Shown here in pieces: positions 2,871-45,609 of a stretch of 64,000 nt of DNA (position 1 is the first letter of the stretch; each line of letters starts with the position of its first letter). Source of the DNA: Minisyncoccota bacterium (GTDB lineage: Bacteria > Patescibacteriota > Minisyncoccia > Phycocordibacterales > UBA9973). The position numbers and the translations under genes were made by a program. A model generated the notes under the pieces. That model made no database searches, was not told where the DNA came from, and saw nothing but the letters and a program-made list of their open reading frames with translations. Location of the stretch: contig JBAZXO010000002.1 in the NCBI GenBank assembly GCA_041659785.1, positions 55,479 through 119,478 of the forward strand. Direction: 5' to 3'.

Positions 2871-3977
2871 TTGTTTGGGACTCTTTTAGTACCTACTCGG
2901 GCAGTAGAGGCAAGCCTATTCTCTTCCATCTCCTCTATGTTCGTCGGGGATCCAGCTTATGCAGAAACGAGCCCTAATACAGTAAGTTTACCTCAAATTG
3001 GTAGCAACTCTCAAAACATTGCCCTTCTTCAGGCCAATGTTTCTTCTGTTTCAATTTTAGATGATAAAAAAAGTAATACCAACGCTAATGCAAGTGATAA
3101 TAATATTGTTTCTGGTAATTCCCTTCTCCCAGCAACTGGACCATTGGGTACGTCTGACGGTAAAAACACAGACAATCTTTCCCCAGAGGACACCAGTGTC
3201 TATGTTGTCAGAAAAGGAGATACAGTGGCGGGCATAGCAAAACTTTTTGATGTTTCCGCAAGCACTATTTTATCAGCCAATGATTTAAAGAAAGGGGCGA
3301 AGCTTACAGAAGGCGACGTCCTTTTAATTTTACCTGTTTCTGGTACTGAACATACAGTCAAAAAAGGTCAAACACTAAAAGGCCTCGCTAGTCTTTATAA
3401 AGTAGATATTTCAGATATTGCTCAATTTAACGGCTTAGATGAAGATTCCAAGCTTGCTATCGGAGACAAGATTATGATTCCAGGGGGAGAAATGCTTGAC
3501 GAAGGAGGTGATAAGCCTGCAGCAAACTTGGGTTCAGCCGTAGCAAAAGATAAAAATTATTACGATATTCACCCAATACAAAATCTTCTTGGATATTTTA
3601 TAGATCCTGTTCCTACTGGCCACAAGACTCAAGGTCTCCATGGTCCAGGACATCGCGGAATAGATATCGGTGCGCCAACTGGTACACCTATTTATGCTTC
3701 TGCTTCCGGAGTTGTATTAGCTGTAAAAACTGGTTGTGTTGTGGGTAGAAAAAGCTGTGGTGGCGGTTATGGAAACATGGCTATCGTTCAACATCCTAAT
3801 GGAACAAAAACTCTTTATGGTCATATGTATAAATTAAATACCAGTACTGGTGCAGAAGTAACTCAAGGCCAACTCATAGGTTTCGTAGGTTCTACTGGCC
3901 GCTCCACTGGTCCTCATGTTCACTTCGAAGTCTTTGGTGCTAAAAATCCCGGATCTGATTGGAGCTGGGCAAATTAA
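2871..3977 (+). CDS. Secreted LysM-LysM-peptidase M23 (cell wall endopeptidase); the start may be TTG at 2817, which adds a signal peptide
   Basis: Two LysM motifs (YVVRKGDTVAGIAKLF..., HTVKKGQTLKGLASLY...). C-terminal M23 signature HRGIDIGAPTGTPIYA...GYGNMAIVQH...GSTGRSTGPHVHFEV. Confidence 0.85.
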   Translation: MFGTLLVPTRAVEASLFSSISSMFVGDPAYAETSPNTVSLPQIGSNSQNIALLQANVSSVSILDDKKSNTNANASDNNIVSGNSLLPATGPLGTSDGKNTDNLSPEDTSVYVVRKGDTVAGIAKLFDVSASTILSANDLKKGAKLTEGDVLLILPVSGTEHTVKKGQTLKGLASLYKVDISDIAQFNGLDEDSKLAIGDKIMIPGGEMLDEGGDKPAANLGSAVAKDKNYYDIHPIQNLLGYFIDPVPTGHKTQGLHGPGHRGIDIGAPTGTPIYASASGVVLAVKTGCVVGRKSCGGGYGNMAIVQHPNGTKTLYGHMYKLNTSTGAEVTQGQLIGFVGSTGRSTGPHVHFEVFGAKNPGSDWSWAN

Positions 3978-3980
3978 AAT

Positions 3981-4026
3981 TTACAAACTAAAAACTCCGC
4001 TTGAGGCGGAATTTTTAGTTTGTAAA
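3981..4026. terminator. Bidirectional hairpin terminator between convergent genes
   Basis: ttacaaactaaaaactccgc-ttga-ggcggaatttttagtttgtaa, a near-perfect ~20-bp stem with a T/A run on both sides. Confidence 0.6.
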
Positions 4027-4030
4027 ATAT

Positions 4031-4762
4031 TTAAATCCCAGCGAGTTTGATTGCTCCGAACAAGACAGCGACACCGAGGACGGTGGCGAAGGTAGTCCAC
4101 ATTGTTGGATGATTGTGATGGCTTTCTGGAAGAAGATCTGAGGCTCCAATATATAAGAAAAACCCTGTAAATACAGCTAGAATTATACCTAAAGTAGCTT
4201 CAGAAACTGAGAAAAACAAAGTAGAAGTTATGCCGAGTACTGGAGCGATAGCATCAACTAAGAGCCATTTGAAAGCTTGTTTCTGCGTGCCGGAATTTTT
4301 TAAAACCATATTCACAGTATTTATTCCATCAGAAAAATCATGCACAAGTACGGCTATGGCAACAATGATTCCAATAGCTGGGGAAACTTTAAACGCGAGA
4401 CCTATAGCTGTACCATCGATGAAGCTATGCATAGACAAACTTCCTGCTCCTAGTACTCCCCTATTATTTAAATCATGTTGTTCATTTTCGTGTTCATGGG
4501 TACCATGCGAATGAAAAAAAACAAATCTATCCAAGATCATATATACGATGAAACCGAGAGCTACGATAGAAGTTATGAAGACAGCATCATAATTATTTTT
4601 ACCTAAATTTAATGCTTCTGGAAGTAAATCAAAAAAAGCTACACCGATTACAGCACCAGCTGAAAAGCCCAAAATTAAGTGTAGTTTATCTTTAAAACGT
4701 AAAGCGAACATTCCACCCAAGAAAGTGGATATCAACGTCATTATGCTTATCCAAATTATCAT
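4031..4762 (-). CDS. zupT: ZIP-family zinc/metal transporter (ZupT-like)
   Basis: Multi-TM protein with an HEHENEQH His-rich loop and the HDFSDG...ESHHN ZIP motifs. Confidence 0.8.
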   Translation of the reverse strand: MIIWISIMTLISTFLGGMFALRFKDKLHLILGFSAGAVIGVAFFDLLPEALNLGKNNYDAVFITSIVALGFIVYMILDRFVFFHSHGTHEHENEQHDLNNRGVLGAGSLSMHSFIDGTAIGLAFKVSPAIGIIVAIAVLVHDFSDGINTVNMVLKNSGTQKQAFKWLLVDAIAPVLGITSTLFFSVSEATLGIILAVFTGFFLYIGASDLLPESHHNHPTMWTTFATVLGVAVLFGAIKLAGI

Positions 4763-15314: not shown

Positions 15315-16913
15315 TTATACTGCAGATAATTCTATGTGGAAAGTAGAGCCTTTTCCTGCACCTTCAGACTCGGCGGAGACTGTGCCTTTGTGAGCCTCTA
15401 TTATTAGTTTTACAGTATAAAGTCCATAGCCAGTGCTGTCCACATTTATCCTTACAGAATCTTTACCTCGTCCGCCTTCGGTAAATAGATTTTGTTTATC
15501 TTCTTCTGTAATACCTATGCCTGAGTCTTTAACTGAAAGTTTAATTTTTCCATTACCGTCTTCGAGTTTTACTAATATGGTTCCTTCTTTTGTATATTTG
15601 ATAGAGTTTTCAATTAAATTATTTACCGCTTCTTTGAGCCAGAATATATCACCATTTGTATTATAAATGCCGTCTTTAATATCTGTCTCTATTTTGAGTC
15701 CTTTTGCTTCAGCTCCAATTTTCTTTTCCTCAACAGTTTTTATGACGATGTCTTTGAAATCAACAACCTTCATATCATATTTGATAATTCCATTTTGCAA
15801 ATTAGCCACATTTAAGACTAAATCAACCGTCTGTATGCCGTTGTTGTCGAATTCTAGACCTTGTTCAGCTCTCTTTTTAATTTCAGGAGTTATTGGCCCA
15901 AATGTTCCATCTAGTATTCCAGCGAAGAGGAACTTGGTACGGGTAAACGATCCTTTAACCTTATGAGTGACAAGGTGAACCAGACTTTCCCTTTGCTTGA
16001 TTGAAAGCTGAAGTTCCATATTTAGTTTAGCCAATTTTTCCTTTTGTTCTACTTCTCTAAGAACGCTTCTGATCAAATTAATACCAAAAATAAGTACTAG
16101 TAAGAATATGCTACTTCTGAAAATAATAAGTACTAATGAATCCGCAAATATTATTTCTAGAAACAAAACTATAGATAATAAAAAAACTAAAATTGAAGTT
16201 GAAAAAACTTTTATATTAAAAAGTCGATTATATAATATCGCATAAGTTGTTAAAATAACAAATGGGAAAGTAAACAAGGCTCCAAAAGGTAAGTATTTTG
16301 AATTTTCAAAAACAGCAGGAAGTATAAAGTTGAAAGTTATAATCATCCCAAACATTAGAGCTGTTCCAATAAGTATTTTAATATATGCTCTGATGAGCTG
16401 TTTGTTTTTTGCACGATGAAGATTTCTTATAAATATAAACAAAGCTGAGAACACTAATGCTATACTCACCATTCCAAAAAGGGGAATAGCTGGACCATTG
16501 GTTATTTTTGTTATATTGCCTGCAGCTGACACCTCTTTTATTTTAGAAAGAACCAAGGGTGATGCTGATATGGCTGCTGTTAGTAATACAAATGGTATTA
16601 AAAAGTATTTAAATACTTTAGGAAAAATTATCGTTGCGTTTGGAAAAACATAAAAGAGTTGAAAAATAGAAAAAGCTTGCAGTATAGCCAAAAACATAAC
16701 TAACCTTAATAATAGAAATGCAACATTGGAATCTGTAAGTCTATATCCAAAAAAGTTTACCAATCCCCATACTCCAGTAATTAAAGAGAATAAAAGAAAT
16801 GACTTGTTCGTAATACTTTTTCTGTCAGTAAAAAATATAGTAAAACCAAGAACAAAAGTTCCTGCCACCGCTACAGCAACTGACAGTATGTCTAAATTTT
16901 CTATTACGTTCAT
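15315..16913 (-). CDS. Sensor histidine kinase with a multi-TM N-terminus; no adjacent response regulator
   Basis: H-box LVTHKVKGSFTR. HATPase_c with N, G1 and G2 boxes (NLIENSIKYT, DSGIGI, GYGLY). Confidence 0.8.
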   Translation of the reverse strand: MNVIENLDILSVAVAVAGTFVLGFTIFFTDRKSITNKSFLLFSLITGVWGLVNFFGYRLTDSNVAFLLLRLVMFLAILQAFSIFQLFYVFPNATIIFPKVFKYFLIPFVLLTAAISASPLVLSKIKEVSAAGNITKITNGPAIPLFGMVSIALVFSALFIFIRNLHRAKNKQLIRAYIKILIGTALMFGMIITFNFILPAVFENSKYLPFGALFTFPFVILTTYAILYNRLFNIKVFSTSILVFLLSIVLFLEIIFADSLVLIIFRSSIFLLVLIFGINLIRSVLREVEQKEKLAKLNMELQLSIKQRESLVHLVTHKVKGSFTRTKFLFAGILDGTFGPITPEIKKRAEQGLEFDNNGIQTVDLVLNVANLQNGIIKYDMKVVDFKDIVIKTVEEKKIGAEAKGLKIETDIKDGIYNTNGDIFWLKEAVNNLIENSIKYTKEGTILVKLEDGNGKIKLSVKDSGIGITEEDKQNLFTEGGRGKDSVRINVDSTGYGLYTVKLIIEAHKGTVSAESEGAGKGSTFHIELSAV

Positions 16914-16938
16914 AGCTTATATTATTATAACTTAATAT

Positions 16939-18003
16939 TTATATATTTTCTATTATCGGTTCTTTCCTACTACTGCGAGCTGACGGGTCTTTTGCATGAC
17001 CAATACGAAACATCATTAAAGGTGTTTCATCTGAATCTAGATTGAATGTTGAAAAAGTATCTTGATAAGATTTAAGTGCCATATTTATATGTTTATTCTT
17101 CAGTGTTTGATCATTTGGATTACTTTTTAATTTAAAACCTAAAAATAAAATGGCAGAGATCGGTTGAAACGCAAGACCTAATGATGTTGTTTTAAGCCAT
17201 ATTTCCTGCATTTTCATTCCAAGTTTAACAAAATTTTCCGGAGATATTTTTTTTAAAGTTAATAATCCTATAGCCGAACCACTGGAATACAGGGTAGCAT
17301 CTTGCTTTGCAATAAAATACGGCAGACCTATTTTTATCGCAATACGCATTAATGTTTTATTGCTTGCAAGTTTAAAAAGAAATTGTTGTATAGGATTAAA
17401 TTCCATGGTCTTTATATAAAGACCATGACGCTCTCTTCTTTCTTGTTCAGTAGACCACATGACGTCTTTAAAAAGATATTCATGCAGTAATTTATTTTCT
17501 AAAATAATTATTTCAGCTGAACTACCTATTATTCCAGCCTGTTTTTTTTCTTTTGGGTCAATTATGAAATGCAAGATTACGTCTTCAAAAGCCCTTGCTT
17601 CTTTTAAAAGTACATTTTCTTCTTCAGAAAGTGGGTTATTTTTATAAGGACGCCTATTCGTTGCACGTTTTGAGATAAATTCAAACAACGGATCAACCTG
17701 TTGTGCCGAAGATGCTTCTTCAAAAGATATTTCTGCTATTAGATTAGAGTCGTTTGGTGTTGGGAATAATTTTATTTTTGATATTAAGCCTATTTTAGAA
17801 GAAGCTATCTCTATGTTTTTTAGAAGAGCTCCGTGAGCAATCAAAGAACCGCTCTGCATAAAATTTAAATACGGGTTATCTTTGTCTGGAAGATTATATA
17901 TTTTAAGTTTTGTACCAGAGAGAACAAATTTCCATGGTTGGGAATTATCACCCGAGGGGGCCATTACTCCATATTTTAATATTTCTTTTATTTTTTTATC
18001 CAT
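16939..18003 (-). CDS. Nitroreductase-superfamily protein (two-lobed, SagB/McbC-like size)
   Basis: APSGDNSQPWKF near the N-terminus and a second RATNRRPY-type motif mid-protein. The length of 354 aa suggests a tandem nitroreductase fold. Confidence 0.55.
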   Translation of the reverse strand: MDKKIKEILKYGVMAPSGDNSQPWKFVLSGTKLKIYNLPDKDNPYLNFMQSGSLIAHGALLKNIEIASSKIGLISKIKLFPTPNDSNLIAEISFEEASSAQQVDPLFEFISKRATNRRPYKNNPLSEEENVLLKEARAFEDVILHFIIDPKEKKQAGIIGSSAEIIILENKLLHEYLFKDVMWSTEQERRERHGLYIKTMEFNPIQQFLFKLASNKTLMRIAIKIGLPYFIAKQDATLYSSGSAIGLLTLKKISPENFVKLGMKMQEIWLKTTSLGLAFQPISAILFLGFKLKSNPNDQTLKNKHINMALKSYQDTFSTFNLDSDETPLMMFRIGHAKDPSARSSRKEPIIENI

Positions 18004-19493
18004 TTTTGTTTTGTTCCAGATTTAAAGTGTTCCGAACTTCCATTTTTCCAAAGTATAACCGAAACATGTGCTCTAGGTCCAAATTTATTTATTGTTTCTT
18101 TGTACTCTGAATGTGTTTCAATGAGTTGTTTATGGATAATTTCTTTTGTTTCCTTTGAAATTTTTTCTGAAGGGGTTATACCCTTTTTAAGTTCTACGTG
18201 AACGATAAGATTAGGTTCTTGTCTTTCAGAAAAACTAGATTCAAGTGTAAATTTTCCGGTAACTTTTTTCTGTATGTTCCCCTCAAGAAGAATTTTCCTT
18301 ATAGGACCAGGATATACTTGAAAAGCGTAATAACTTACAGAGAAATCACTTCTTTCAAAAACATATACAAAAGGTAACTCCCAAATACTTTTTTGTATAT
18401 TGTTTTTTTTTGCTTCTTTTAAAAGATCAATGTTAAACTTTTTAAACAGAGATTTCATTTCATTAAAACCAATAATATTGCCTTTATCTTCTAGGTTATA
18501 TCTCACAAGAGGAATCGCACTTTCACTAGTGCAGATAAGGTTATTATCAATTGATTCAAAATAAAATAATTCTGGTAAATACTGAGTTAATGTTGGTGTT
18601 TTTATAATATCGCCAAATATCTTTTTATATAAAGTTTTGTTTTTTTCAGCCAATTTTCTTATCAAAATACAAATGGGTGTTTCATACGACATGGTACCAA
18701 GGTCAACGGTGCCATAGTGATTAAGGGTGTCTAAAAAAATATTTTTACTTCCGACGATATTGCCAATATAGTCCCGAAATGATTCAGGAAATGCTTCTGC
18801 TGAGAATATAAATTTTATATTATATTTTTTCCAATTAATTTTTTCATGTAATCCAGTATCAAGGATATCTTTGGTAAATGGACCATATGATCCAATAATT
18901 ATTTGGTCATAATATTGACCCATTTTTTCTATTGTCTTTATTATTGAAGAAGTATCAATACCTGTGGTTATGATACTTAAAGGATATTGTGACTCCCTGG
19001 CAATTCGTGTGATCACTTCATATGTGAAAACCCCACCAATCCAAGGCCCCATAGGAAATGCGTCAATATATAAGGTTTTTTTCTTATGAATACTAAAATT
19101 AGTTCTTAAGTAAAGCTCAGCGTAGAGCTGATATTGTTCGTCTTGCGTTTCTGTTCGAGGAAAATAAAATGGTTCTCCTGTTGATCCAGATGTCACAGAA
19201 AAAACACGAGGGAGATGAGTCAATTTATTTTTTATAAAAAGTTTTTCAAAAGGATAAGAACACAAATAATTATTTTTACTTAATGTTGGCAACTTTTCAA
19301 AATCTTGTACCGTTTTTACGGTGGGGATTTTACTATTTTGTTTTTTATAAAAATCTATATATGCTGGAACTTGTTTTGTTTCATTGAAACGTTTCAATAC
19401 AACTTTCCCTCCACGCTTAATCCAGAAAGATTCTTTTTTAATTTTAAGTAATTTTTCTAATTCAAGAACTTTTTTATGAATGGAATGCTTCAT
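17988..19493 (-). CDS. PaaK/F390-synthetase-like adenylate-forming enzyme (phenylacetate-CoA ligase family)
   Basis: TSGSTGEPFYFP matches the (S/T)SG(S/T)TGxP AMP-binding motif. Overlaps the downstream gene by 16 nt. Confidence 0.65.
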   Translation of the reverse strand: MKHSIHKKVLELEKLLKIKKESFWIKRGGKVVLKRFNETKQVPAYIDFYKKQNSKIPTVKTVQDFEKLPTLSKNNYLCSYPFEKLFIKNKLTHLPRVFSVTSGSTGEPFYFPRTETQDEQYQLYAELYLRTNFSIHKKKTLYIDAFPMGPWIGGVFTYEVITRIARESQYPLSIITTGIDTSSIIKTIEKMGQYYDQIIIGSYGPFTKDILDTGLHEKINWKKYNIKFIFSAEAFPESFRDYIGNIVGSKNIFLDTLNHYGTVDLGTMSYETPICILIRKLAEKNKTLYKKIFGDIIKTPTLTQYLPELFYFESIDNNLICTSESAIPLVRYNLEDKGNIIGFNEMKSLFKKFNIDLLKEAKKNNIQKSIWELPFVYVFERSDFSVSYYAFQVYPGPIRKILLEGNIQKKVTGKFTLESSFSERQEPNLIVHVELKKGITPSEKISKETKEIIHKQLIETHSEYKETINKFGPRAHVSVILWKNGSSEHFKSGTKQKWIKK

Positions 19494-19509
19494 GAGAACT
19501 TATTATTTG

Positions 19510-20565
19510 TTAATTTTTTAATTTATTTATAATTTTTTCCGCCATCCTGTCTGCAACTCTGGCAGGAGATATTTTTTCTTTGTCACTCCCTTCCATTATC
19601 TTTTCCAATGTTTTCTTTATTTTTTTAACCTTTCCTTCTATTCTATCTGCATCAAAATTTTTATTTTCATATTCATCTACCACGCTTATCAGGCCTCCAG
19701 CATTTACCACATAGTCTGGACCATAAAATATACCTTTTTCATATATTTTGTCGGCAATATCCTTACTCTCAAGTTGGTTGTTCGCAGAACCCGTTATTAT
19801 TTTACAATTCAATTCCCCAATAGTTTTTTTATTTAGAGCGTATGAAAGTGCACATGGCATATAGACATCAACTTTCTGTTTTTGAATTTTATCCGGAGCT
19901 ACTATCTTTACTTTTGGGAAAAGTTTTTGTATAAATTTTAATCGATCAATATTTGTGTCTGATATATAAATTTTCCCTGCATTTTTATAAACTATTTTTA
20001 AAAATTCATGGCCAACTTTCCCTACTCCCTGTATGGCAAACGTTCTGTCTTTAAAACTTTCATTTCCAAATATTTTTTTGCAAGCTACTTCAATAGAGAA
20101 AAATAATCCGACGGCCGTATATTTTTCTGGATTTGATTTTAATCCGACAAAATACTCACTTTCTCTTTTCATTTTCTTTAAATCAGTCAAATCTAGCCCC
20201 ACATCTGTACCAGTTATAAATTTACCAGAAAGTTCATTTAATTTTTGCGCATACGCTTTTAAGATTTTGTCTTTTGGAAATTCATCATTTCTTATAATTA
20301 CAGCTTTTGCTCCACCGTATTTAAAGCCAGCCATGGCGCTTTTATAAGACATTAATCTAGAAAGTCGAAGTGCGTCCCTGAGGGCATCATCTTCAGTTTT
20401 ATATTCTAAAAAGCGAGTTGCACCGAAAGAGGGGACTCTTTTTTGGTTTTTGTGAAAAGCAATAAAACCCTTTAAACCTGTTGCTTCGTCATCTAAACGA
20501 AAAACTGATTGGTGATTATCAAATTCTGTAAATTTTTCTAATAGTTTATTTTCTATTTGATTCAT
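19510..20565 (-). CDS. Glu/Leu/Phe/Val-type amino acid dehydrogenase
   Basis: N-terminal substrate domain with the AGFKYGGAKAVII catalytic-Lys region. C-terminal Rossmann fold (FAIQGVGKVGHEF). Confidence 0.75.
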   Translation of the reverse strand: MNQIENKLLEKFTEFDNHQSVFRLDDEATGLKGFIAFHKNQKRVPSFGATRFLEYKTEDDALRDALRLSRLMSYKSAMAGFKYGGAKAVIIRNDEFPKDKILKAYAQKLNELSGKFITGTDVGLDLTDLKKMKRESEYFVGLKSNPEKYTAVGLFFSIEVACKKIFGNESFKDRTFAIQGVGKVGHEFLKIVYKNAGKIYISDTNIDRLKFIQKLFPKVKIVAPDKIQKQKVDVYMPCALSYALNKKTIGELNCKIITGSANNQLESKDIADKIYEKGIFYGPDYVVNAGGLISVVDEYENKNFDADRIEGKVKKIKKTLEKIMEGSDKEKISPARVADRMAEKIINKLKN

Positions 20566-21614
20566 AATACGAATATATTTTTTACTATATATTTATTATT
20601 GTCTTCTTTGTTTATAATTTTTTTAAGCATCACTGTCGCGACTACTCCACCTAAAATGGCAGCAGAGCCAAGCTGAGACCATGATACCAATTCTTTTTTT
20701 AATACTTTTTCAACTGATCTTAATGTTCTTGGGTCAATATTTTTAATACCACCGACGATGTCGTTCATTATAACATTTCCCATCATCTCCATGCTTGGAG
20801 GCTGTGAAAGAATATTTTTCCAATATGAGATATCTTTATCAAATATTTTTTTATATCCTAAGTCATATCGTTCTACATGCAGGACCACTCCGTCACCATT
20901 GTCGGTAATCATAATCACTGGTACTTTGTATTTAATTGCGAGCTCTCTGGCCTCTATTTTGAAAGGTAAACTATCTACTTCCTCTATTATTAAATCAATT
21001 TTCTTTGCCTTTAAGAGTTTTTCAATGTTTTCTTTAGAAGCACCATCAGGTAAAGTTGTTACTTTTGCAAAAGGATTATCCTCATAGATTCTTCTTGCTG
21101 CTATGATTGTCTTATTTAATCCAATTTGGTGTGCTCCCGCTATTATTCTATTTAAATTTGTTGTATCAAGATCGTCAAAATCAGCAATGATAATTTCGTT
21201 TGAAATACCAGCTTGAGTGAGAACAAGAGAAATATTGCTTCCTACACTCATGCCGAAAACAGCTACTTTTGTGTTTCGTAGTCTTTCTTGCTCTTCTTTT
21301 GTTATAAGGTCTCTATTTCTGTTAGTCTTTAATTCTAAGTAGTCTTCTTTTTTTACTGTTTTTACAAGAGAAAAATTCCATGGATAAAATACGTATGTGT
21401 ATTTATTTTCCATCTTTTTTGAAAAATTTGTGAATTCTTTAGTTTTATATCCTTCTGTTTTCTTTGGGCCAGCGTATAGAGGATTTTTAATTATGAAAAG
21501 TTCTTTAAGTTGATGAGAAAAAGCATCTACAAAATTGATGTGTTTTTGCTTCATCAATTTTTCAGCTTCTTTTTTATTCAGTATCTTAGGCCTGTATTCG
21601 TTTTTTTGTTCCAT
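20562..21614 (-). CDS. ThiF/MoeB/E1-like adenylyltransferase with an ~110-aa N-terminal extension
   Basis: VAVFGMSVGSNISLVLTQAGISNEIIIADFDDLDTTNLNRI fits the E1 Rossmann and DxD...NLNRQ pattern. 4-nt overlap with the dehydrogenase gene. Confidence 0.6.
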   Translation of the reverse strand: MEQKNEYRPKILNKKEAEKLMKQKHINFVDAFSHQLKELFIIKNPLYAGPKKTEGYKTKEFTNFSKKMENKYTYVFYPWNFSLVKTVKKEDYLELKTNRNRDLITKEEQERLRNTKVAVFGMSVGSNISLVLTQAGISNEIIIADFDDLDTTNLNRIIAGAHQIGLNKTIIAARRIYEDNPFAKVTTLPDGASKENIEKLLKAKKIDLIIEEVDSLPFKIEARELAIKYKVPVIMITDNGDGVVLHVERYDLGYKKIFDKDISYWKNILSQPPSMEMMGNVIMNDIVGGIKNIDPRTLRSVEKVLKKELVSWSQLGSAAILGGVVATVMLKKIINKEDNNKYIVKNIFVL

Positions 21615-21695
21615 TTTTCTTAAATGAATTCCGTTACGTTAGGGTTACTTATTTTAACATAAAAAAACCCAGCAAGAAAGATACGGGTATCAATT

Positions 21696-22253
21696 TTATT
21701 GATTATTCTTTAGCCACACCATACTGTCGTAGCCGATTAGTATTCTATCCTCATCTTTTATCCCCAATTTTTTTAGAAAATCAAATAGTTCTTTTTGTAC
21801 CTTTTCTCCATCTTCTTCTGACATTTTTTCTACTTCTATAAATGAACCTAGATCATCTACTTCATCAAGGCAAATCTCATAATCATTATATTTACCCCGG
21901 CGTCTCTTTTTATGAACTTCTACTGTTTTTTTGAAATCAAGCAGTTCTATTATTTCTTCTAATTTATTTTTATCACTGACATCAACTTCTTTTTCAATGC
22001 AATCAAGTTCGTTGCTACGATTCTTTTTTAATGTAAAAGTAATTCTTCCATTTTGCTCTCGTATTCTTAAAACTGGAGTACCATGATTGTGGTCCTTAGG
22101 ATTTATTCCTTTTTTGTTATATACACAATCATCTTGAGCGACTGGTTGATTTAAAATACAACCAATTTCTTCTAATTTAGAAATTATACTATCAAGATCT
22201 TTTACCTTAGCTTTTACTTCTATTTCGTTTTTCATATCATTAAAGTATAACAA
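21696..22253 (-). CDS. CYTH-domain protein (CyaB/thiamine-triphosphatase-like)
   Basis: N-terminal EIEVKAKV matches the CYTH ExExK signature. 185 aa. Confidence 0.65.
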   Translation of the reverse strand: MLYFNDMKNEIEVKAKVKDLDSIISKLEEIGCILNQPVAQDDCVYNKKGINPKDHNHGTPVLRIREQNGRITFTLKKNRSNELDCIEKEVDVSDKNKLEEIIELLDFKKTVEVHKKRRRGKYNDYEICLDEVDDLGSFIEVEKMSEEDGEKVQKELFDFLKKLGIKDEDRILIGYDSMVWLKNNQ

Positions 22254-22297
22254 AATTTAGTTTAAAATAATTATTATTTTTTTGTATTTATCTTGAG

Positions 22298-22328
22298 GGT
22301 TGACAAGGCACAAAAGGTATTCTAATAT
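22298..22328 (+). promoter_or_regulatory. Strong sigma70-like promoter (TTGACA-17-TAATAT) for the peptide/radical-SAM locus
   Basis: Read directly. Confidence 0.45.
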
Positions 22329-22403
22329 TTTAACAAGCCTTATTCTTTGACATAAAACAAAAAAGTCCTACTTTTTTGTTGCCATTTGGGTCAATAAAGT
22401 TAA

Positions 22404-22428
22404 TTGAAAATCCATAATGGATTTTCAA
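22404..22428. promoter_or_regulatory. Perfect 12-1-12 palindrome ttgaaaatccat-a-atggattttcaa; operator-like site
   Basis: Read directly. It lies between the promoter and the first mini-ORF. Confidence 0.35.
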
Positions 22429-22474
22429 CCCAACTGACAGCAGAAGATTATAGGCAAGAAAGGAGGAAAATATC

Positions 22475-22555
22475 ATGCGATGCAAAACCAAGAAGTCGAC
22501 GAAGAAGCGTATCAGGGTCCGTATTGGCAAAGGCAGTTGCAGCATCTGCGACTAG
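22475..22555 (+). CDS. Mini-ORF A, 26 aa, MRCKTKKSTKKRIRVRIGKGSCSICD. Candidate leader or precursor peptide
   Basis: Perfect AGGAGG sits 8 nt upstream of the ATG. Cys3 and a C-terminal CSIC motif. GC-rich codons. The 88-aa track ORF from 22480 is an alternative reading through the G10 tract. Confidence 0.35.
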   Translation: MRCKTKKSTKKRIRVRIGKGSCSICD

Positions 22556-22567
22556 TCTGTCGAAAAC

Positions 22568-22608
22568 CTGAGGGGGGGGGGATACTGCGTATCCGCCCCC
22601 TCTTTTTA
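22568..22608 (+). terminator. Hairpin holding a G10 homopolymer (gagggggggggggata-ctgcg-tatccgccccctc) followed by TCTTTTT; terminator/attenuator-like
   Basis: Inverted repeat and T-run read directly. Ten consecutive G at 22572..22581. Confidence 0.45.
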
Positions 22609-22620
22609 AAAGAGGACAAT

Positions 22621-22746
22621 ATGAAGATCAAGAGAAATCTTTCAAAAAAAATTTGTAGGTTTTTCTTTAAAATTGGGAAATTCCTAATTTATCTACCTAG
22701 AGGATTTCCAGTAGATTCTTACATTACTGGTATTTTCAACATATAA
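22621..22746 (+). CDS. Mini-ORF B, 42 aa, MKIKRNLSKKICRFFFKIGKFLIYLPRGFPVDSYITGIFNI. Candidate precursor peptide
   Basis: AGAGGA RBS 5 nt before the ATG. It ends 15 nt before the radical-SAM gene. Confidence 0.35.
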   Translation: MKIKRNLSKKICRFFFKIGKFLIYLPRGFPVDSYITGIFNI

Positions 22747-22761
22747 GGAAAGGACATCGCC

Positions 22762-23841
22762 ATGGAATGTAATTCTGAAATTCCTCGCCTAGAAGTTGAA
22801 ACTGAAGATGCAATTTACGAGATTGAATTCGGACAAGTTCAGATCGAGATTACTGGTCGATGCAACATGAGCTGTTTGCACTGCAGAGCTGCCAATCAAC
22901 TTAAGCAAGATATGCCAGTCGAACAAATTGCTAAAATCATTAAATTCGCTCGGCAGTTTAGTCCAAACTACAAAGAAATTATACTTTCTGGTGGTGAACC
23001 GCTTATGCACCATGATTTTGCTAAGGTGTTGAGACGGGTTCATGATAGCGGTGGTGAATTCATCACTTTAACGACTAACGGTTCACTGCTCACCGATGAA
23101 CACCTTTCACTTATTAGCAAACTTTCTTTTCAGCGTTTTGTTCTTTCTGTGAGTCTAGACAATCTCAACCCCACGAAGCACGACAAGTTTCGTGTTTACA
23201 ACGGAGCATTTACCAAGGCTATTTCTGCTTTACGTCGGGTGGCGGAAAGTAATTTACCAAACGTTATTGCTTCAATGCGATCCACTATTCAGGCTTCCCA
23301 GATTAATGAAATGGAAAGCATGGTGGATTTTGCAAAAAATCTTGGGTGCAAGCGAGTTAGCTTCTCAGCAATACATCCAGCTGGAAGAGCTATCGAGCGT
23401 AACGACCTTTGGATGACCCGTGAACAAAAACGGGAATTTGTAAAAGAGGTTTATCGGCTCAAGGAATTGTTTCCTGATCTTAACGTTACAACGAACGATC
23501 CGCTTAAGTGTTTACTTCGTCAGAAGAATGATTTAGGAAAAGAAGGGGAATTAGTTTTTGATGGTTGTGGCGCTGCTGCTATTACCTTCAACGTTAATTC
23601 CAACGGCACAATGACTCCGTGCGCCTTGCTCGATATTCCGATGATGAATGTTTTCCCTCTTTCTATCGAAGAGATGAACGAGCATTATCAACAAAGTCCA
23701 ATTGTCAGAAGCATGTTGGATATGAACCTTAAGGGTAAATGTGGTGCATGCCACATGAAATATCAATGTGGGGGATGTCGTGCTCGTGCTTTAATCCAGA
23801 ATGGGGATTTTTTAGGGGAGGATCCTCATTGCTGGCTATAA
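22762..23841 (+). CDS. Radical SAM enzyme with a C-terminal SPASM/twitch domain (peptide-modifying-maturase type)
   Basis: CNMSCLHC is a CX3CX2C cluster. GGEPLM. C-terminal Cys cluster CGAAAITF...PCALL...CGACHMKYQCGGCRARA. The gene is GC-richer than its flanks. Confidence 0.85.
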   Translation: MECNSEIPRLEVETEDAIYEIEFGQVQIEITGRCNMSCLHCRAANQLKQDMPVEQIAKIIKFARQFSPNYKEIILSGGEPLMHHDFAKVLRRVHDSGGEFITLTTNGSLLTDEHLSLISKLSFQRFVLSVSLDNLNPTKHDKFRVYNGAFTKAISALRRVAESNLPNVIASMRSTIQASQINEMESMVDFAKNLGCKRVSFSAIHPAGRAIERNDLWMTREQKREFVKEVYRLKELFPDLNVTTNDPLKCLLRQKNDLGKEGELVFDGCGAAAITFNVNSNGTMTPCALLDIPMMNVFPLSIEEMNEHYQQSPIVRSMLDMNLKGKCGACHMKYQCGGCRARALIQNGDFLGEDPHCWL

Positions 23842-23864
23842 TGACCTACACCTCGAAACAATCA

Positions 23865-23908
23865 AACCGCTTTTCAACGAGAACCGTTAGGAGGGCGGTT
23901 TTCTTTTT
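23865..23908 (+). terminator. Hairpin (aaaccgc...gcggttt) plus T-run after the radical-SAM gene
   Basis: Read directly. Confidence 0.4.
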
Positions 23909-23920
23909 ATATAACCTTTT

Positions 23921-24403
23921 TTGTTATACAATAAAATCATGAATACTTATTTGAAAAAATTTATAGATGGAAAATTTAAAAAACCAGGCAAAGCCCTAGA
24001 CTTAGGAGCTGGTGATTTTTTTGATGTTGCTTGTTTAAAACAATTAGGGTGGAAAAGTGAAGGCGTTGATATAAAAATGGGTATTAATTTGGAAAAAACT
24101 TACGAATCAAAAAATAAACCTTTTGACTTGGTTTATTCAAATTATGTACTACATAAGCTAAAAAATAAAAAACAATTCATTCAAACAATTTTTAATAATT
24201 TAAAAAATGAAGGATGGTTTTTTATTCATACCTTTGATCAATCTGATAAAAATAGTAAATCTAATTTATCACGAATTTATTTAAAAAAACTATTATCCGA
24301 ACAAGGATTAAAAAATATTAAAATAAAATTATTTAGTTTTTATGATAATGATGAGGGGCACAAACATTGGCATAAAATTTTAGAAGCAACGGGGCAAAAA
24401 TAG
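23921..24403 (+). CDS. Class I SAM-dependent methyltransferase (small, very AT-rich)
   Basis: Motif I ALDLGAGDFFDVACL. 160 aa. Confidence 0.6.
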   Translation: MLYNKIMNTYLKKFIDGKFKKPGKALDLGAGDFFDVACLKQLGWKSEGVDIKMGINLEKTYESKNKPFDLVYSNYVLHKLKNKKQFIQTIFNNLKNEGWFFIHTFDQSDKNSKSNLSRIYLKKLLSEQGLKNIKIKLFSFYDNDEGHKHWHKILEATGQK

Positions 24404-24414
24404 ACAGCCATTTT

Positions 24415-25491
24415 TTATTTTATCTTCTCAATTTTTTCCCAAGGGAGATTTGGTTTTCCGAAGTGGCCATAGGTGGATGTTTGGCTGTATATTGGGTTGC
24501 GAAGGCCGAGAGTTTCGATGATTGCAAGTGGTTTGAAATCGAAATTTTTGCGAACGATTTCTGCCAAGTTTTCTCCTTTTTCATTAATTGCTTCTATCAT
24601 TAATGGTTCAGCCATACCTATGGCATAAGCTACAGATACGAGCACCTCTTTACCATAACCACCCGCAACGAGGCTTTTCGCAACAAAGCGAGCCATATAG
24701 GCGCCTGAACGGTCTACCTTTGTGGCATCTTTTCCTGAGAAACATCCACCACCGTGGGGGATGAGTCCTCCATAAGTATCTACCATTATTTTTCTTCCCG
24801 TTAATCCTGTATCTGCCTCGAAACCACCTTGGATAAATTTTCCCGTAGGGTTTACCAATATCTTCACCACACTTTTTTCCTCAGAAGAAAGAAGAGGATT
24901 TATTATTTTTTCAGTAATTTCTTTTTTAATTTCTTCTAACGTCACTTCTGGTGTGTGTTGCGTACTTACAAGTACGGTATTCAGTTCGCCGTTCGTATAA
25001 GTGACTTGTGTTTTGCCATCTGGGCGCAACCATTCTATTCTTTTAGTCTCATCTGCACTGTTCCTCAATTCTTCTAAACGTTTTGCAAGTTTGTGTGCGA
25101 GCACTACACCCTTAGGTAAAAATTCTGGAGTTTCATCTGTAGCAAAGCCGTACATTATTCCTTGGTCTCCAGCTCCGCCTGTATCTACGCCTTGAGCGAT
25201 GTCAGGGGATTGGGTGACGATATGTGCAGAGATCTCGAGTTCGTCTGTGTAGCCAATTTTTCTATAAACATCACGAGCAATTTTTATATAATCTACTTTT
25301 CCCGTCGAGGTGACTTCTCCACCAATCACAAGCTTGCCATGGCCACCAAAGGTTTCCACAGCCACACGACTCTTTGGGTCTAAAGTTAAATATGCATCTA
25401 AAATAGCATCTGATATTTGGTCACAGATTTTGTCCGGATGGCCTCCCGTGACGCTCTCGACTGTGTAGTTGTCATTGTGTTTGTAAAACAT
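24415..25491 (-). CDS. metK: S-adenosylmethionine synthetase
   Basis: GGHPDKICDQISDAILDAYL and GGAGDQGIMYGFA signatures. Confidence 0.9.
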   Translation of the reverse strand: MFYKHNDNYTVESVTGGHPDKICDQISDAILDAYLTLDPKSRVAVETFGGHGKLVIGGEVTSTGKVDYIKIARDVYRKIGYTDELEISAHIVTQSPDIAQGVDTGGAGDQGIMYGFATDETPEFLPKGVVLAHKLAKRLEELRNSADETKRIEWLRPDGKTQVTYTNGELNTVLVSTQHTPEVTLEEIKKEITEKIINPLLSSEEKSVVKILVNPTGKFIQGGFEADTGLTGRKIMVDTYGGLIPHGGGCFSGKDATKVDRSGAYMARFVAKSLVAGGYGKEVLVSVAYAIGMAEPLMIEAINEKGENLAEIVRKNFDFKPLAIIETLGLRNPIYSQTSTYGHFGKPNLPWEKIEKIK

Positions 25492-25548: not shown

Positions 25549-26109
25549 ATGAACATTGAAGTTGAGATAAAAGTAAAAATAGATAATTTTGAAGAAATAA
25601 AGGAAAAGGTTTCCAAACTCGGGAGGCTTGTAAAAGCAGTAAAACAGATAGACGAATATTATGTACCAATACATAGGGATTTCTTTGATCACAAGCCACG
25701 GCCTGTAGAACATTTAAGAATAAGGACCAATCCTGATAAAACTGTTTTTGAATATACTAGAACGATAGGATTGCAAGCAGGTGGAGATTATGATTACGCA
25801 GAAGAGTATGAGACAGGTATTTCTAACGTGGAAGAATTCAAGAAGACTTTGGAATTTTTGGATTTTAAAAAAGTTGTGATTGTGGAAAAAGAAAGAGAGT
25901 ACTGGATGTGCGGAGGGATAGAAGTCGCACTCGATAAAGTGAAGGACTTAGGAACATTTATGGAAGCAGAAGCAAAAGGAGATTTTAAGGATGAAAAAGA
26001 AGCCAAGCAGGCCTGCATAGATTTTTTAGAAAATCTTGGAATTAAAGATGTTGAAAATACGCAAATAAGGCACGGTTATCCGCAATTCTTTTTAGAAAAG
26101 AAAAGTTAA
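25549..26109 (+). CDS. CYTH-domain protein, a paralog of the one at 21696..22253
   Basis: MNIEVEIKVKIDN ExExK motif. C-terminal acidic motifs. Confidence 0.65.
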   Translation: MNIEVEIKVKIDNFEEIKEKVSKLGRLVKAVKQIDEYYVPIHRDFFDHKPRPVEHLRIRTNPDKTVFEYTRTIGLQAGGDYDYAEEYETGISNVEEFKKTLEFLDFKKVVIVEKEREYWMCGGIEVALDKVKDLGTFMEAEAKGDFKDEKEAKQACIDFLENLGIKDVENTQIRHGYPQFFLEKKS

Positions 26110-41651: not shown

Positions 41652-41982
41652 AATTGATTTTCTTGAGCGAAGCGATTTAACATGGTTTTTAAAATATATT
41701 CGCCTTGCTCATTATTTTAATAAAAAAGCCCTGTTTCTGACAGGACTTATATGGGAAGAATATACCATAAAACATATTTAAATGCAAATTACACAACAAA
41801 CAGAGTTAAATTTTGTACATTTGTATTTTCATGTTTAATTATTGACATACTAACGTTAGTATTGCGAAATTTAAAAATGTGTGTTATAGCTATAAAAAAG
41901 ATTGTTCATTGTTAATTAAATAAACTCAATGGGAATCCTCCCATAACTTCAGGCTTAAATGCCAATCGAAAGGAGTAATACA

Positions 41983-43140
41983 ATGGAAAAGATTAGATAT
42001 TTCGGGGAATGGGCTTGTGTAAATGGCTATGCCTTTAATACACAAACTAAACAGTTAATTGATTTAAAAGATCATCTTATCTCTAGAGAGTTTCTCAGCT
42101 CAAAGATTTTTAAGGATATAGTTAATTCTGATTTAAGTAAAGTATACGAGAAAAGAAAAGCTAATCAAATATTAGCCCTAGAGATAACTGAAAGATGTAA
42201 CTACGAATGCCGTTATTGTTTTGAAGGTAATAGTAGTCAAATCAAAAACAATTCTCTTAGTTTTCAAAAAGCATGTAATGCTATTGATAAATTACCAAAT
42301 GGCAGTAAGTTAAGATTTTTTGGTGGTGAACCATTACTGGAATTTGATTTGATAAAAGATATGGTTGCGAAATATCCACAACACATATATTCAATAGTTA
42401 CTAATGGTAGTCTAGTAACATCTGAAATTGCCAGCTTTCTTGCTGAGCACAAATTTTCTGTTGGTCTTTCTTATGATGGTTATGGATGGCAAAAAAGAAA
42501 TAGAATATGCCGAAATCATGATTCACAGCATGATTTTGAAAATGCTATCAAGCTTTTATCAGAAGCCGGTGTTTATGTAGGGATTTCAACAGTAGTAACA
42601 AAAGAAAGCATACCTAGTTTATATGATATTCATCTTGAAGTATTTGATGATTATCCGATTAGTGGTTGGGCTTATTTGATTGGCTATACAAGCGATATGA
42701 CTTTTTTAGATTTAGATATATTTAGAAATAATTTAATGGGAATCATTGAAGATTTTCCAGCAAGACATTTACTTAAAATAAATGATCTCAGAAGATGGTC
42801 TATGAAAGTTACAGGAGAGTGGCCCATTGATGGATTTTGTGGGGCTGGTGCTTGTTATAAAGCAATAACAAGTCAAGGAGAAGAAAGATTCTGCCCATTT
42901 TTCCTTAGAGAGCCATCTTGTTATGGGCCAAGTATTGGGTTAGTTGAAGTTAATTGCAAAAAATGCCAAATTTGGAATTTTTGCAAAGGCGGATGTTTAG
43001 CATTGAATTTATATGGTTCTGGGTCAACAAACAAAAGTCATCCATTTTCATGTAAGAAAAACCATATTTATTTCGAAGCTGGATTAAGAACTAGAATAAA
43101 AATAAGAGAAGAAATTGAAAATCCAGCCAAAATGCGATAA
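41983..43140 (+). CDS. Radical SAM/SPASM maturase (ranthipeptide/sactipeptide-maturase type)
   Basis: ITERCNYECRYC is a CX3CX2C cluster. GGEPLL. C-terminal SPASM cysteines CGAGACYKAI...CPFF...CYGP...CKKCQIWNFCKGGC. An AAGGAG RBS sits before the ATG at 41983; the track uses 41959. Confidence 0.85.
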   Translation: MEKIRYFGEWACVNGYAFNTQTKQLIDLKDHLISREFLSSKIFKDIVNSDLSKVYEKRKANQILALEITERCNYECRYCFEGNSSQIKNNSLSFQKACNAIDKLPNGSKLRFFGGEPLLEFDLIKDMVAKYPQHIYSIVTNGSLVTSEIASFLAEHKFSVGLSYDGYGWQKRNRICRNHDSQHDFENAIKLLSEAGVYVGISTVVTKESIPSLYDIHLEVFDDYPISGWAYLIGYTSDMTFLDLDIFRNNLMGIIEDFPARHLLKINDLRRWSMKVTGEWPIDGFCGAGACYKAITSQGEERFCPFFLREPSCYGPSIGLVEVNCKKCQIWNFCKGGCLALNLYGSGSTNKSHPFSCKKNHIYFEAGLRTRIKIREEIENPAKMR

Positions 43141-44376: not shown

Positions 44377-45609
44377 ATGTTTAAGTTCATGCAAGTTCTT
44401 CGTAATACCTTGGTGTTGTCCGGAGTCCTGACTCTCGGGTTTAACATCAGCTGTTCTGGAGGAGGTGGGGACCCAAAACCAAACCCACCACCTGTCGTGA
44501 CTTACGTCACGACGATTGATCCGAAGGAGGGGACGCATTCTAGTCCTCTCTCTACAACTACAGAAGCGGGGAAACCCACTTCGTTCGGTATTACTCTTGA
44601 TGCGGGGTATTCGAACCCCGTACTTACCCCCATGGTGGGAACAATTGCGCCTGGTGTGACTACGGGAACGTATGTTTACACCATTCCATCCGTCAATGCG
44701 ACTTCAACAATCGTCTTGACGGCGACAAAAGATCCGACGCTTTACAAGGTTTCGGGAAAGGTGACCGGTGTCAACATCAGTGGCCTAACTATGACCTTGC
44801 AGTCAACAGGCAAGTCTGTGTTGACAGATGCCAACGGGAACTACACCTTTTACGGTGTGCCTACTGGCAACGACGTTATAACACCCAGTGGGCCTGTGAA
44901 ATTCTCTCCCACATATCGCAATGTCGGCATTAACAATGCCGATTCCGTCGGTAATGACTTCACGACGACGTTGGTGGAAGGTTCTCCGGAAATGGCGATT
45001 TCCATCATTTACAGAGATTATGGAGATGGACGAGTGACTACTGTGATAGCACAGTCTATGACTCCATTGGTTCTAGGGGATGTTCTTACTTTCTGGGGGA
45101 AAAAACCTGGTGAAAGTATTTCTACCCAGTGGCATGATCCTGTTATAATAGACTCCAATCTTGCTGGGAGATACATGACGTTTTACTTTTACGACGGCAA
45201 GGACTTTTTCGACGTCCTCCCTGACGGCACCAAGAAGTTCTGGCTGCCCGGGTCTGCTGTCTTCGAAGTAAGGGACAAAAAATTGTCAGGATTGACGACG
45301 TTTGTGCTAGCAGAAGTACCTGTACCAGGGGATCCTAATCGAACATTCGGCCCTCTTGTAAGGGTTGATGTTTCCCCAGATGGAAAGAGCGCTCAGCTCT
45401 TCGGTGAAGGGTTAGCTGGAACGGTGGTCGAACTTTACCAAATGGTAGGTACGGCTTTTCGGTCAGTTACTTTGGTACCCCAGAACGGAATCATCACCAT
45501 TCCGTCCGATTTCTACGGTCTCAAATCTCCAGTAACGGTTGTGTTCAGAAAGCAGGATGGGAGTTATCTGTGCTCCACTGCTTATCCTGACATACCCAAG
45601 CAACAATAA
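44377..45609 (+). CDS. Secreted/lipoprotein-like protein with a CarboxypepD_reg-like beta-sandwich segment; GC-rich relative to the rest of the window
   Basis: Signal peptide ending ...LTLGFNISC. YKVSGKVTGVNISGLTMTLQSTGKSVLTDANGNYTFYGVP motif. Confidence 0.55.
   Translation: MFKFMQVLRNTLVLSGVLTLGFNISCSGGGGDPKPNPPPVVTYVTTIDPKEGTHSSPLSTTTEAGKPTSFGITLDAGYSNPVLTPMVGTIAPGVTTGTYVYTIPSVNATSTIVLTATKDPTLYKVSGKVTGVNISGLTMTLQSTGKSVLTDANGNYTFYGVPTGNDVITPSGPVKFSPTYRNVGINNADSVGNDFTTTLVEGSPEMAISIIYRDYGDGRVTTVIAQSMTPLVLGDVLTFWGKKPGESISTQWHDPVIIDSNLAGRYMTFYFYDGKDFFDVLPDGTKKFWLPGSAVFEVRDKKLSGLTTFVLAEVPVPGDPNRTFGPLVRVDVSPDGKSAQLFGEGLAGTVVELYQMVGTAFRSVTLVPQNGIITIPSDFYGLKSPVTVVFRKQDGSYLCSTAYPDIPKQQ

Follow-up and report, generated by a model that had tools for sequence, protein, structure and literature searches.

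The 64,000-nucleotide stretch analyzed here (referred to as the window) is part of contig JBAZXO010000002.1 of a Minisyncoccota bacterium, and it carries a compact cassette made up of a small peptide gene (open reading frame 1, ORF1), a gene encoding a radical S-adenosylmethionine (rSAM)/SPASM enzyme, and a gene encoding a class I SAM-dependent methyltransferase. We regard it as probable that this is a cassette of the RiPP type (ribosomally made, post-translationally modified peptide), in which ORF1 would be the substrate, the rSAM enzyme would modify the tail of the peptide, and the methyltransferase would serve as partner. The cassette is unnamed and belongs to the already known kind of rSAM/SPASM peptide-maturases; no description of it was found in the literature on RiPPs, SPASM, ranthipeptides or radical SAM in Patescibacteria/Saccharibacteria. 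All coordinates are positions in the window, and all parts of the cassette lie on the + strand. The comparison set consisted of 73 genome loci, drawn from 185,579 species genomes, and 20 further metagenome loci; single loci are designated by L and a number. An earlier description of this DNA, made from its letters alone (hereafter the preliminary description), had listed the elements of the region, and every one of them was found again when positions 21900-25200 were read together with the list of ORFs.

A conserved peptide gene upstream of a radical SAM/SPASM enzyme

In every intact close locus with upstream sequence, a short ORF ending in (K/R)V(K/R)VRIGKGSCxxC(D/E) lies directly upstream of the rSAM gene, and the peptide-maturase arrangement proposed in the preliminary description is borne out by this conservation. 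The residues R-I-G-K-G-S-C..C-D are unchanged in 23 distinct genes, and each of them is coded by 2-5 synonymous codons; invariant residues combined with synonymous codon variation indicate selection on the protein. The N-terminal part of the peptide is variable in length and Lys-rich throughout, and the tails of the close peptides mostly read C-x-x-C-D or C-x-x-C-E, with a minority ending in N, S or GD. Peptides of this type are called as proteins in only 29 entries of a 5.8 billion-cluster database, all of them unnamed and without a Pfam domain, and NCBIfam and Pfam searches with the peptides returned nothing. ORF1 had been described as a leader ORF; rather than a mere leader, it is itself a conserved, substrate-like peptide under selection at the protein level. 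As is expected of a RiPP cassette, a short precursor gene is co-located and co-oriented with a modifying enzyme across genomes, and ORF1 is most likely a precursor-like peptide and the predicted substrate of the rSAM enzyme.

The rSAM enzyme has the cluster motif CNMSCLHC (CxxxCxxC) at residues 34-41, in which C34, C38 and C41 are invariant, and a full SPASM Cys set (C269, C287, C327, C330, C336, C339 and C357), all invariant except C287, which is nearly so. The Pfam Radical_SAM domain (PF04055) scored 86 bits, and both Cys motifs and a SPASM-like fold place the protein in the radical SAM/SPASM superfamily. The solved structures closest to an AlphaFold2 model of the enzyme (pLDDT, a per-residue confidence score, 91.5) are SkfB, CteB, SuiB (TM 0.77), PqqE and anSME, which are all peptide- or protein-modifying enzymes. 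An N-terminal RRE (peptide-recognition) domain is missing from the enzyme, and the only element before the CxxxCxxC motif is a short beta-hairpin. Its scores fall below every NCBIfam cut-off: 162 bits for NirJ2 (TIGR04055; cut-off 500), 151 bits for GeoRSP (cut-off 400), 146 bits for AhbD (TIGR04545; cut-off 500), 84.4 bits for PapB (NF047865; cut-off 340), 82 bits for PqqE (TIGR02109; cut-off 381) and 76 bits for MftC (TIGR03962; cut-off 265). PADLOC returned only generic rSAM (pVip) similarity, and a database entry for the identical protein, from a metagenome-assembled genome (MAG) of Candidatus Paceibacterota, calls it a radical SAM protein.

The methyltransferase gene adjoins the rSAM gene, usually downstream of it, in 22 genome loci including the window, and also in most metagenome loci. 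Its family has 326 members of about 154 amino acids, all generically named, with D136, H141, H143, W144 and H145 invariant; the fold is a minimal class I fold like those of TehB, BioC and JHAMT, and the fold search matched only generic small-molecule methyltransferases. In 14 of 16 loci (counted by eye), the methyltransferase ATG has a TATAAT/TACAAT box 6-8 nt ahead of it and no Shine-Dalgarno sequence. The rSAM gene does have its own terminator, as had been described, and a hairpin with a T-run was also found at this position in other loci that were folded. The terminator and the box near an ATG that has no Shine-Dalgarno sequence suggest a separate, leaderless transcript, and the methyltransferase is probably expressed from its own promoter as a leaderless mRNA. 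The preliminary description had contrasted the AT-rich methyltransferase with a GC-rich module; its adjacency to the rSAM gene in the 22 genome loci places it inside the cassette and not in a flank, and by this measure it is a dedicated partner.

Between the peptide gene and the enzyme gene of the window stand a G10-containing hairpin and ORF2. The hairpin folds with -33.1 kcal/mol (z = -4.1), a value that none of 200 shuffles matched; a simple terminator scan missed it because the stem is bulged. A GC-rich stem of 10-16 bp, located 10-25 nt past the peptide stop codon, was present in 28 of 34 loci; an imperfect T-tract and, after it, the rSAM ribosome-binding site usually come next, and the stem is conserved in position, not in sequence. 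Such a hairpin fits partial termination, which may fix how much precursor is made per enzyme, and the short mRNA may also gain stability from it. Of the attenuator that had been placed between a leader ORF and a core ORF, the hairpin after ORF1 stands in most loci; what it divides is the peptide gene from the enzyme gene.

ORF2 lies in an insertion of 156 nt shared by the window and L078, which is a fragment from this same organism, and by no other locus; the gap between the peptide and rSAM genes is 206 nt in the window versus -19 to 106 nt in the loci whose neighborhoods were compared. A tblastn search of the 73 loci gave no match to ORF2 (best E 0.8), and a search of 1.84 billion representative proteins gave no homolog. 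The proposal that ORF2 is a candidate core peptide is not sustained, since other loci have no room for it and neither search found a counterpart; of the two mini-ORFs for which a conservation check had been suggested, ORF1 is conserved in homologous loci and ORF2 had no match in the 73. ORF2 is, as these comparisons suggest, an accident of a lineage-specific insertion, outside the conserved system. The features of the region are listed in Table 1.

Table 1. Features of the cassette and its immediate surroundings, in window coordinates
Feature	Position	Strand	Basis
Sigma-70-type promoter TTGACA-17-TAATAT (TTGACA 22300-22305, TAATAT 22323-22328)	22300-22328	+	
Structured 5' leader RNA, ~140 nt (predicted)	22338-22474	+	Covariance model R1, covariation
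Perfect 12-1-12 palindrome, predicted central leader stem-loop	22404-22428	+	RNAalifold, compensatory changes
AGGAGG ribosome-binding site for ORF1	22461-22466	+	Sequence reading; kept in leader alignment
ORF1, 26-aa precursor-like peptide, MRCKTKKSTKKRIRVRIGKGSCSICD	22475-22555	+	Conservation upstream of rSAM
G10-containing GC-rich hairpin (22570-22602) and TTTTT (22603-22607)	22570-22607	+	Folding, 28/34 loci
Lineage-specific AT-rich insertion, 156 nt, holding ORF2	22606-22761	+	Only window and L078
ORF2, 42 aa, AGAGGA upstream	22621-22746	+	Sequence reading
Radical SAM/SPASM enzyme gene, 359 aa	22762-23841	+	Pfam Radical_SAM, AlphaFold2
Intrinsic terminator after rSAM gene (hairpin 23879-23903 and T-run)	23863-23908	+	Terminator scan, folding
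-10-like box TATACAAT, 6 nt before methyltransferase ATG	23925-23932	+	14/16 loci, by eye
Class I SAM-dependent methyltransferase, 154 aa	23939-24403	+	Pfam Methyltransf_23
metK, convergent	24415-25491	opposite to cassette	TIGR01034, 435 bits

A structured leader RNA

Promoter-like sites are not in excess in the region overall (14 observed versus 12.8 expected from shuffled sequence). In 13 of the 16 homologous loci a TTGACA is found again, 31-43 nt ahead of the conserved leader, and the -35 box is conserved. The leader, which extends for about 140 nt from the promoter to ORF1, shows nucleotide-level conservation within a subclade. Its conserved blocks are TCTTTRACAT, AAGTCCTAY, the TCAATAAAGTTAA internal loop and ATAGGCARGAAAGGAGG, the last of which includes the ribosome-binding site; hardly any variation is seen in the 14-nt internal loop UCAAUAAAGUUAAA, in the block AAGUCCUA or in the block AUAGGCA. 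A covariance model of the leader (R1) scored 124.7 bits at the window leader and 84-157 bits in 15 other close loci, and a scan of positions 21500-25000 at E <= 1 gave no Rfam match.

The palindrome within the leader had been described as operator-like. RNAalifold lengthened its stem by the pairs GGG 22388-22390 : CCC 22429-22431 and CUCUUU:AAAGAG. Across 16 distinct leaders, 90.1% of cells were paired and compensatory changes occurred at 10 of 19 pairs; the observed covariation score was reached by 0 of 500 shuffles, and slid controls were paired at only 31-62%. For the central hairpin alone, 92.5% of cells were paired and 6 of 10 pairs had compensatory changes. G-U wobbles were seen on the + strand only (in L001, L022, L075 and L082), and for that reason an RNA stem is favored over a DNA operator. 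The compensatory changes and the G-U pairs are those of a stem in RNA, and covariation supports the palindrome as the central stem of a conserved, structured leader RNA. The outer helices CCUAU:AUAGG and CUUU:ribosome-binding site are plausible and cannot be confirmed by covariation, because both sides are nearly invariant; AGGAGG is predicted to pair with the 5' CUUU block in the minimum-free-energy fold.

Over 664 kb, the matches to R1 lay directly upstream of an ORF1-type peptide gene, with one exception. The exception is a second leader copy (144 bits, L079/L080 5142-5500), which precedes a different peptide-rSAM operon encoding a 50-aa, Cys-rich acidic peptide MENTETVIVQTIADLEVACSMQADLSGPEHKLAGEACCDQCCDDYICSSD that ends ...CCDQCCDDYICSSD, followed by a hairpin and a 468-aa rSAM protein (Fer4_12 and Radical_SAM). 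This second copy, placed before another Cys-rich peptide and rSAM gene, ties the leader to peptide-maturase operons and makes it common to two of them in one genome. No copy of the leader RNA stands ahead of the other rSAM gene of the window (41959-43140), the first such locus of the preliminary description, for which the best match is the PapB family (90 bits versus 340). Of the parts of the cassette, the leader RNA is the most novel.

Distribution, transfer and neighboring genes

Homologs of the rSAM enzyme that are 60-83% identical occur in Paceibacteria, Moranbacteria, Magasanikbacteria, Falkowbacteria, Campbellbacteria and Saccharibacteria, and in the same range also in WS2, Planctomycetota, and MAGs labeled Woesearchaeota or Nanoarchaeota. 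Close loci number only about 40 among the 185,579 species genomes, a metagenome scan gave only 5 loci, and the cassette was found in groundwater lineages as well as in oral and gut Saccharibacteria. The neighboring genes differ at nearly every locus. L034, which is among the closest relatives of the window in the genome collection, has an rSAM gene truncated at about residue 70 by an insertion (3300-4060) that contains a reverse-strand, transposase-like ORF (by eye) and the repeated palindrome GTGCAAAGTCGAACTTTGCACA. The search of IMG/VR gave no close relative (best 29% identity), and therefore no evidence for a phage vehicle.

The preliminary description had pointed to a GC-richer module formed by the mini-ORFs and the rSAM gene. 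The GC content of third codon positions (GC3) is 0.74 in ORF1, 0.38 in the rSAM gene, 0.26 in ORF2 and 0.17 in the methyltransferase gene, versus a mean of 0.28 (sd 0.075) for the genes of the window; the contrast is real but uneven, and metK also reaches 0.35. Since metK is equally GC-rich, GC-richness was rejected as simple evidence for transfer. Across hosts, and whatever the host GC3, the rSAM and peptide genes are GC-rich and the methyltransferase gene is AT-rich; GC3 of the rSAM gene, the methyltransferase gene and the other genes is 0.58, 0.26 and 0.57 in L001, and 0.59, 0.20 and 0.31 in L002. This stable contrast between the rSAM and methyltransferase genes is the more telling signal of transfer, and on that footing the suggestion of horizontal acquisition from composition holds.

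Copies in MAGs labeled Woesearchaeota or Nanoarchaeota (L006, L009, L010, L028 and L033) encode rSAM enzymes 66-73% identical to that of the window and are without the leader, the Shine-Dalgarno sequence and the hairpin. Apparent TATA-box sequences occur in these copies, about 24-30 nt before the ATG in L009 and L033, and in these two a GNAT gene takes the place of the methyltransferase gene. The changed signals in the archaea-labeled copies suggest inter-domain transfer in which expression signals were replaced. Altogether, the cassette is probably accessory, sporadic and horizontally mobile among bacteria of the Candidate Phyla Radiation (CPR), and it is found in DPANN-labeled bins as well.

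More distant relatives (L036-L062 and L072, with rSAM enzymes 33-41% identical) form cassettes with peptides that end in ...KN[ST]C-x-T-[SC]-G-S-[YFW]-K. An archaeal-type threonyl-tRNA synthetase (ThrRS) gene without an editing domain (591 bits versus a cut-off of 484) is adjacent in 14 of these loci, and also next to the distant cassettes are genes for GNAT acetyltransferases, for a kinase-like protein and for a putative amidohydrolase with weak similarity to TatD (18 bits). Their hosts are labeled Bacilli/Mycoplasma-like, Rickettsiales, Bdellovibrionales, Woesearchaeota and CPR. The ThrRS-linked set may serve self-resistance or point to a connection with translation.

In the window itself, metK is immediately convergent with the cassette, as had been described; it is not a conserved neighbor. 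Two diverged, inverted CYTH/CyaB-like paralogs bracket the cassette and metK, at 21696-22253 (-) and 25549-26109 (+). The metK and CYTH genes were rejected as functional partners, being found beside the cassette in 0 of 73 and 2 of 73 loci, respectively. A ThiF-like gene two genes upstream (20562-21614) was likewise rejected as an MccB-like partner, because it forms part of a split Rv1355c-like pair and is not a neighbor of the cassette in other loci. The ThiF-like gene belongs to a minus-strand group (15315-21614) that encodes a histidine kinase, a nitroreductase-like and ThiF-like pair whose members correspond to the two halves of Rv1355c-family proteins, a 500-aa ORF without a known function, and a ScyB-like tryptophan dehydrogenase (278 bits); this group is not conserved beside the cassette in other loci. 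Elsewhere in the window, the ORFs at 44377-45609 and 63225-63665 (-) are compositional outliers, with GC3 of 0.50 and 0.60 versus the mean of 0.28.

Proposed function and alternative explanations

In the mechanism that we propose, the conserved sigma-70 promoter would give rise to a transcript consisting of the leader and ORF1. Most transcripts would probably end at the G-rich hairpin and T-run, 15 nt past the ORF1 stop codon, and read-through into the rSAM gene would result in more peptide than enzyme. The rSAM enzyme would bind the conserved (K/R)V(K/R)VRIGKG stretch and modify the invariant C-terminal C-x-x-C-(D/E) tail, the likeliest reaction being formation of an intramolecular thioether from the Cys sulfur to the terminal Asp/Glu, and the methyltransferase, probably made from its own promoter, would methylate the product. 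Operons for lantibiotics and other RiPPs carry a hairpin or a weak terminator immediately behind the precursor gene and before the modification genes. The cassette differs from these precursor attenuators in that the position of the hairpin is conserved across dozens of CPR loci, and in having a separate structured 5' leader.

A PapB-like thioether between Cys and the C-terminal Asp is the best guess as to the chemistry, because the C-S-I-C-D tail of ORF1 is Cys-X3-Asp, a motif that PapB cross-links. PapB cross-links Cys-X3-Asp/Glu and also accepts cross-links to C-terminal residues (PMC9413430, PMC12373016). The window resembles the PapA/PapB system (ranthipeptide, freyrasin) in its radical SAM/SPASM enzyme and in its Cys-X3-Asp/Glu substrate, placed here at the extreme C-terminus; it differs in that there are six motifs in that system versus one in ORF1, and in that ORF1 is very short and basic and its acceptor is not invariant. 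Most close peptides have the Cys-Xn-Asp/Glu expected of a PapB substrate, whereas the enzyme scores far below the PapB threshold; this shortfall, the varying acceptor and the different tail in distant homologs weigh against filing the enzyme in the PapB family. The nearest solved folds, CteB (SCIFF/thermocellin) and SkfB (sactipeptide), are SPASM/twitch enzymes that form thioethers on Cys-containing peptides, and SCIFF peptides likewise have a conserved core. CteB and SkfB differ in having an N-terminal RRE, which the window enzyme, with its CxxxCxxC starting at residue 34, does not have.

Several observations count against a RiPP-type cassette with this chemistry. The acceptor position is not universal, as some close peptides have N, S or GD there and distant relatives have G, and the rSAM enzyme scores higher against NirJ2 and AhbD (146-162 bits) than against the PapB family (84 bits), all of these far below the cut-offs. 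The terminator after ORF1 is strong on paper, and we infer the read-through past it. A conserved tail with a variable N-terminus is the opposite of what typical antimicrobial RiPPs have and is like cofactor precursors, and the close family has no conserved protease, transporter or immunity gene next to the cassette. The conserved tail, the variable N-terminus and the missing exporter together would also suit a small-molecule product, and the corresponding alternative is that ORF1 is a scaffold or precursor from which the modified C-terminal residues are excised to give a cofactor or antimetabolite, as in pyrroloquinoline quinone (PQQ), mycofactocin or PEARL-type pathways. PqqA and MftA share the conserved tail and variable N-terminus, and the PqqA/PqqE and MftA/MftC systems are further alike in that the precursor is tiny and its C-terminal target conserved, that the rSAM/SPASM enzyme carries no fused RRE, and that an exporter is absent; the close family has no conserved exporter or immunity gene, and the distant cassettes stand beside ThrRS, amidohydrolase-like, kinase-like and GNAT genes, which make up a typical self-resistance and release set. 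However, the subfamily of the window has no conserved peptidase or amidohydrolase, its neighborhoods hold no PqqD/MftB, PqqB/C, MftD/E/F or peptidase partners, the rSAM enzyme fails the PqqE and MftC models, and the ThrRS linkage occurs only in distant relatives and could be synteny of a housekeeping gene. We consider an excised product unlikely.

The top NCBIfam scores of the enzyme (NirJ2, GeoRSP, TIGR04053 and AhbD) would also be compatible with a cofactor or heme-type enzyme of the AhbD/NirJ kind that has no peptide substrate, with ORF1 as an unrelated, small and basic Cys-knuckle protein (a nucleic acid- or ribosome-binding protein, for example) sharing the operon. ORF1 is Lys/Arg-rich like small ribosomal proteins, and the peptide gene of L007 lies just downstream of an ORF resembling the C-terminus of uL2 (by eye). 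Yet these scores are 2.5- to 3.5-fold under the curated cut-offs, so that membership of AhbD or NirJ2 fails, and what lies upstream is a conserved peptide gene; genes for heme or siroheme are missing from the surroundings, the nearest structures are peptide-modifying enzymes, and the pairing of peptide and rSAM enzyme persists across phyla, in changing contexts and in archaea-labeled bins. The sporadic distribution and the insertion-disrupted copy also argue against a housekeeping role, and the heme-type explanation appears to us quite improbable. The model of the preliminary description, in which attenuation at the G10 hairpin is coupled to translation of ORF1 as a leader ORF and ORF2 is the core precursor, draws on the plausible AGAGGA ribosome-binding site of ORF2 and its position 15 nt upstream of the rSAM gene. 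An ORF that is confined to an insertion unique to this organism and has no homolog in the related loci or in the protein collection hardly fits that role; its GC3 is close to the gene average and far under that of ORF1, and the conservation of ORF1 at the protein level is not needed by an attenuation leader. There is next to no likelihood left for this model.

Among these explanations, the RiPP-type cassette, with ORF1 as the putative substrate, remains the one that we prefer. A bolder proposal, speculative and on the whole doubtful, is that the product of the cassette is a conserved small molecule or cofactor derived from a peptide and not an ordinary bacteriocin, that distant versions of the cassette may be linked to ThrRS, that it has been exchanged between CPR and DPANN, and that its bacterial form is under an undescribed, riboswitch-like leader common to a second peptide-maturase operon. 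CPR bacteria and DPANN archaea have tiny genomes and, by the general view, few recognizable natural-product pathways. For peptide-maturase operons, the leader RNA is a candidate new cis-regulatory element; the cassette as a whole is a concrete candidate for a host-interaction molecule or cofactor, and ORF1 offers a putative 26-residue substrate that is open to direct testing.

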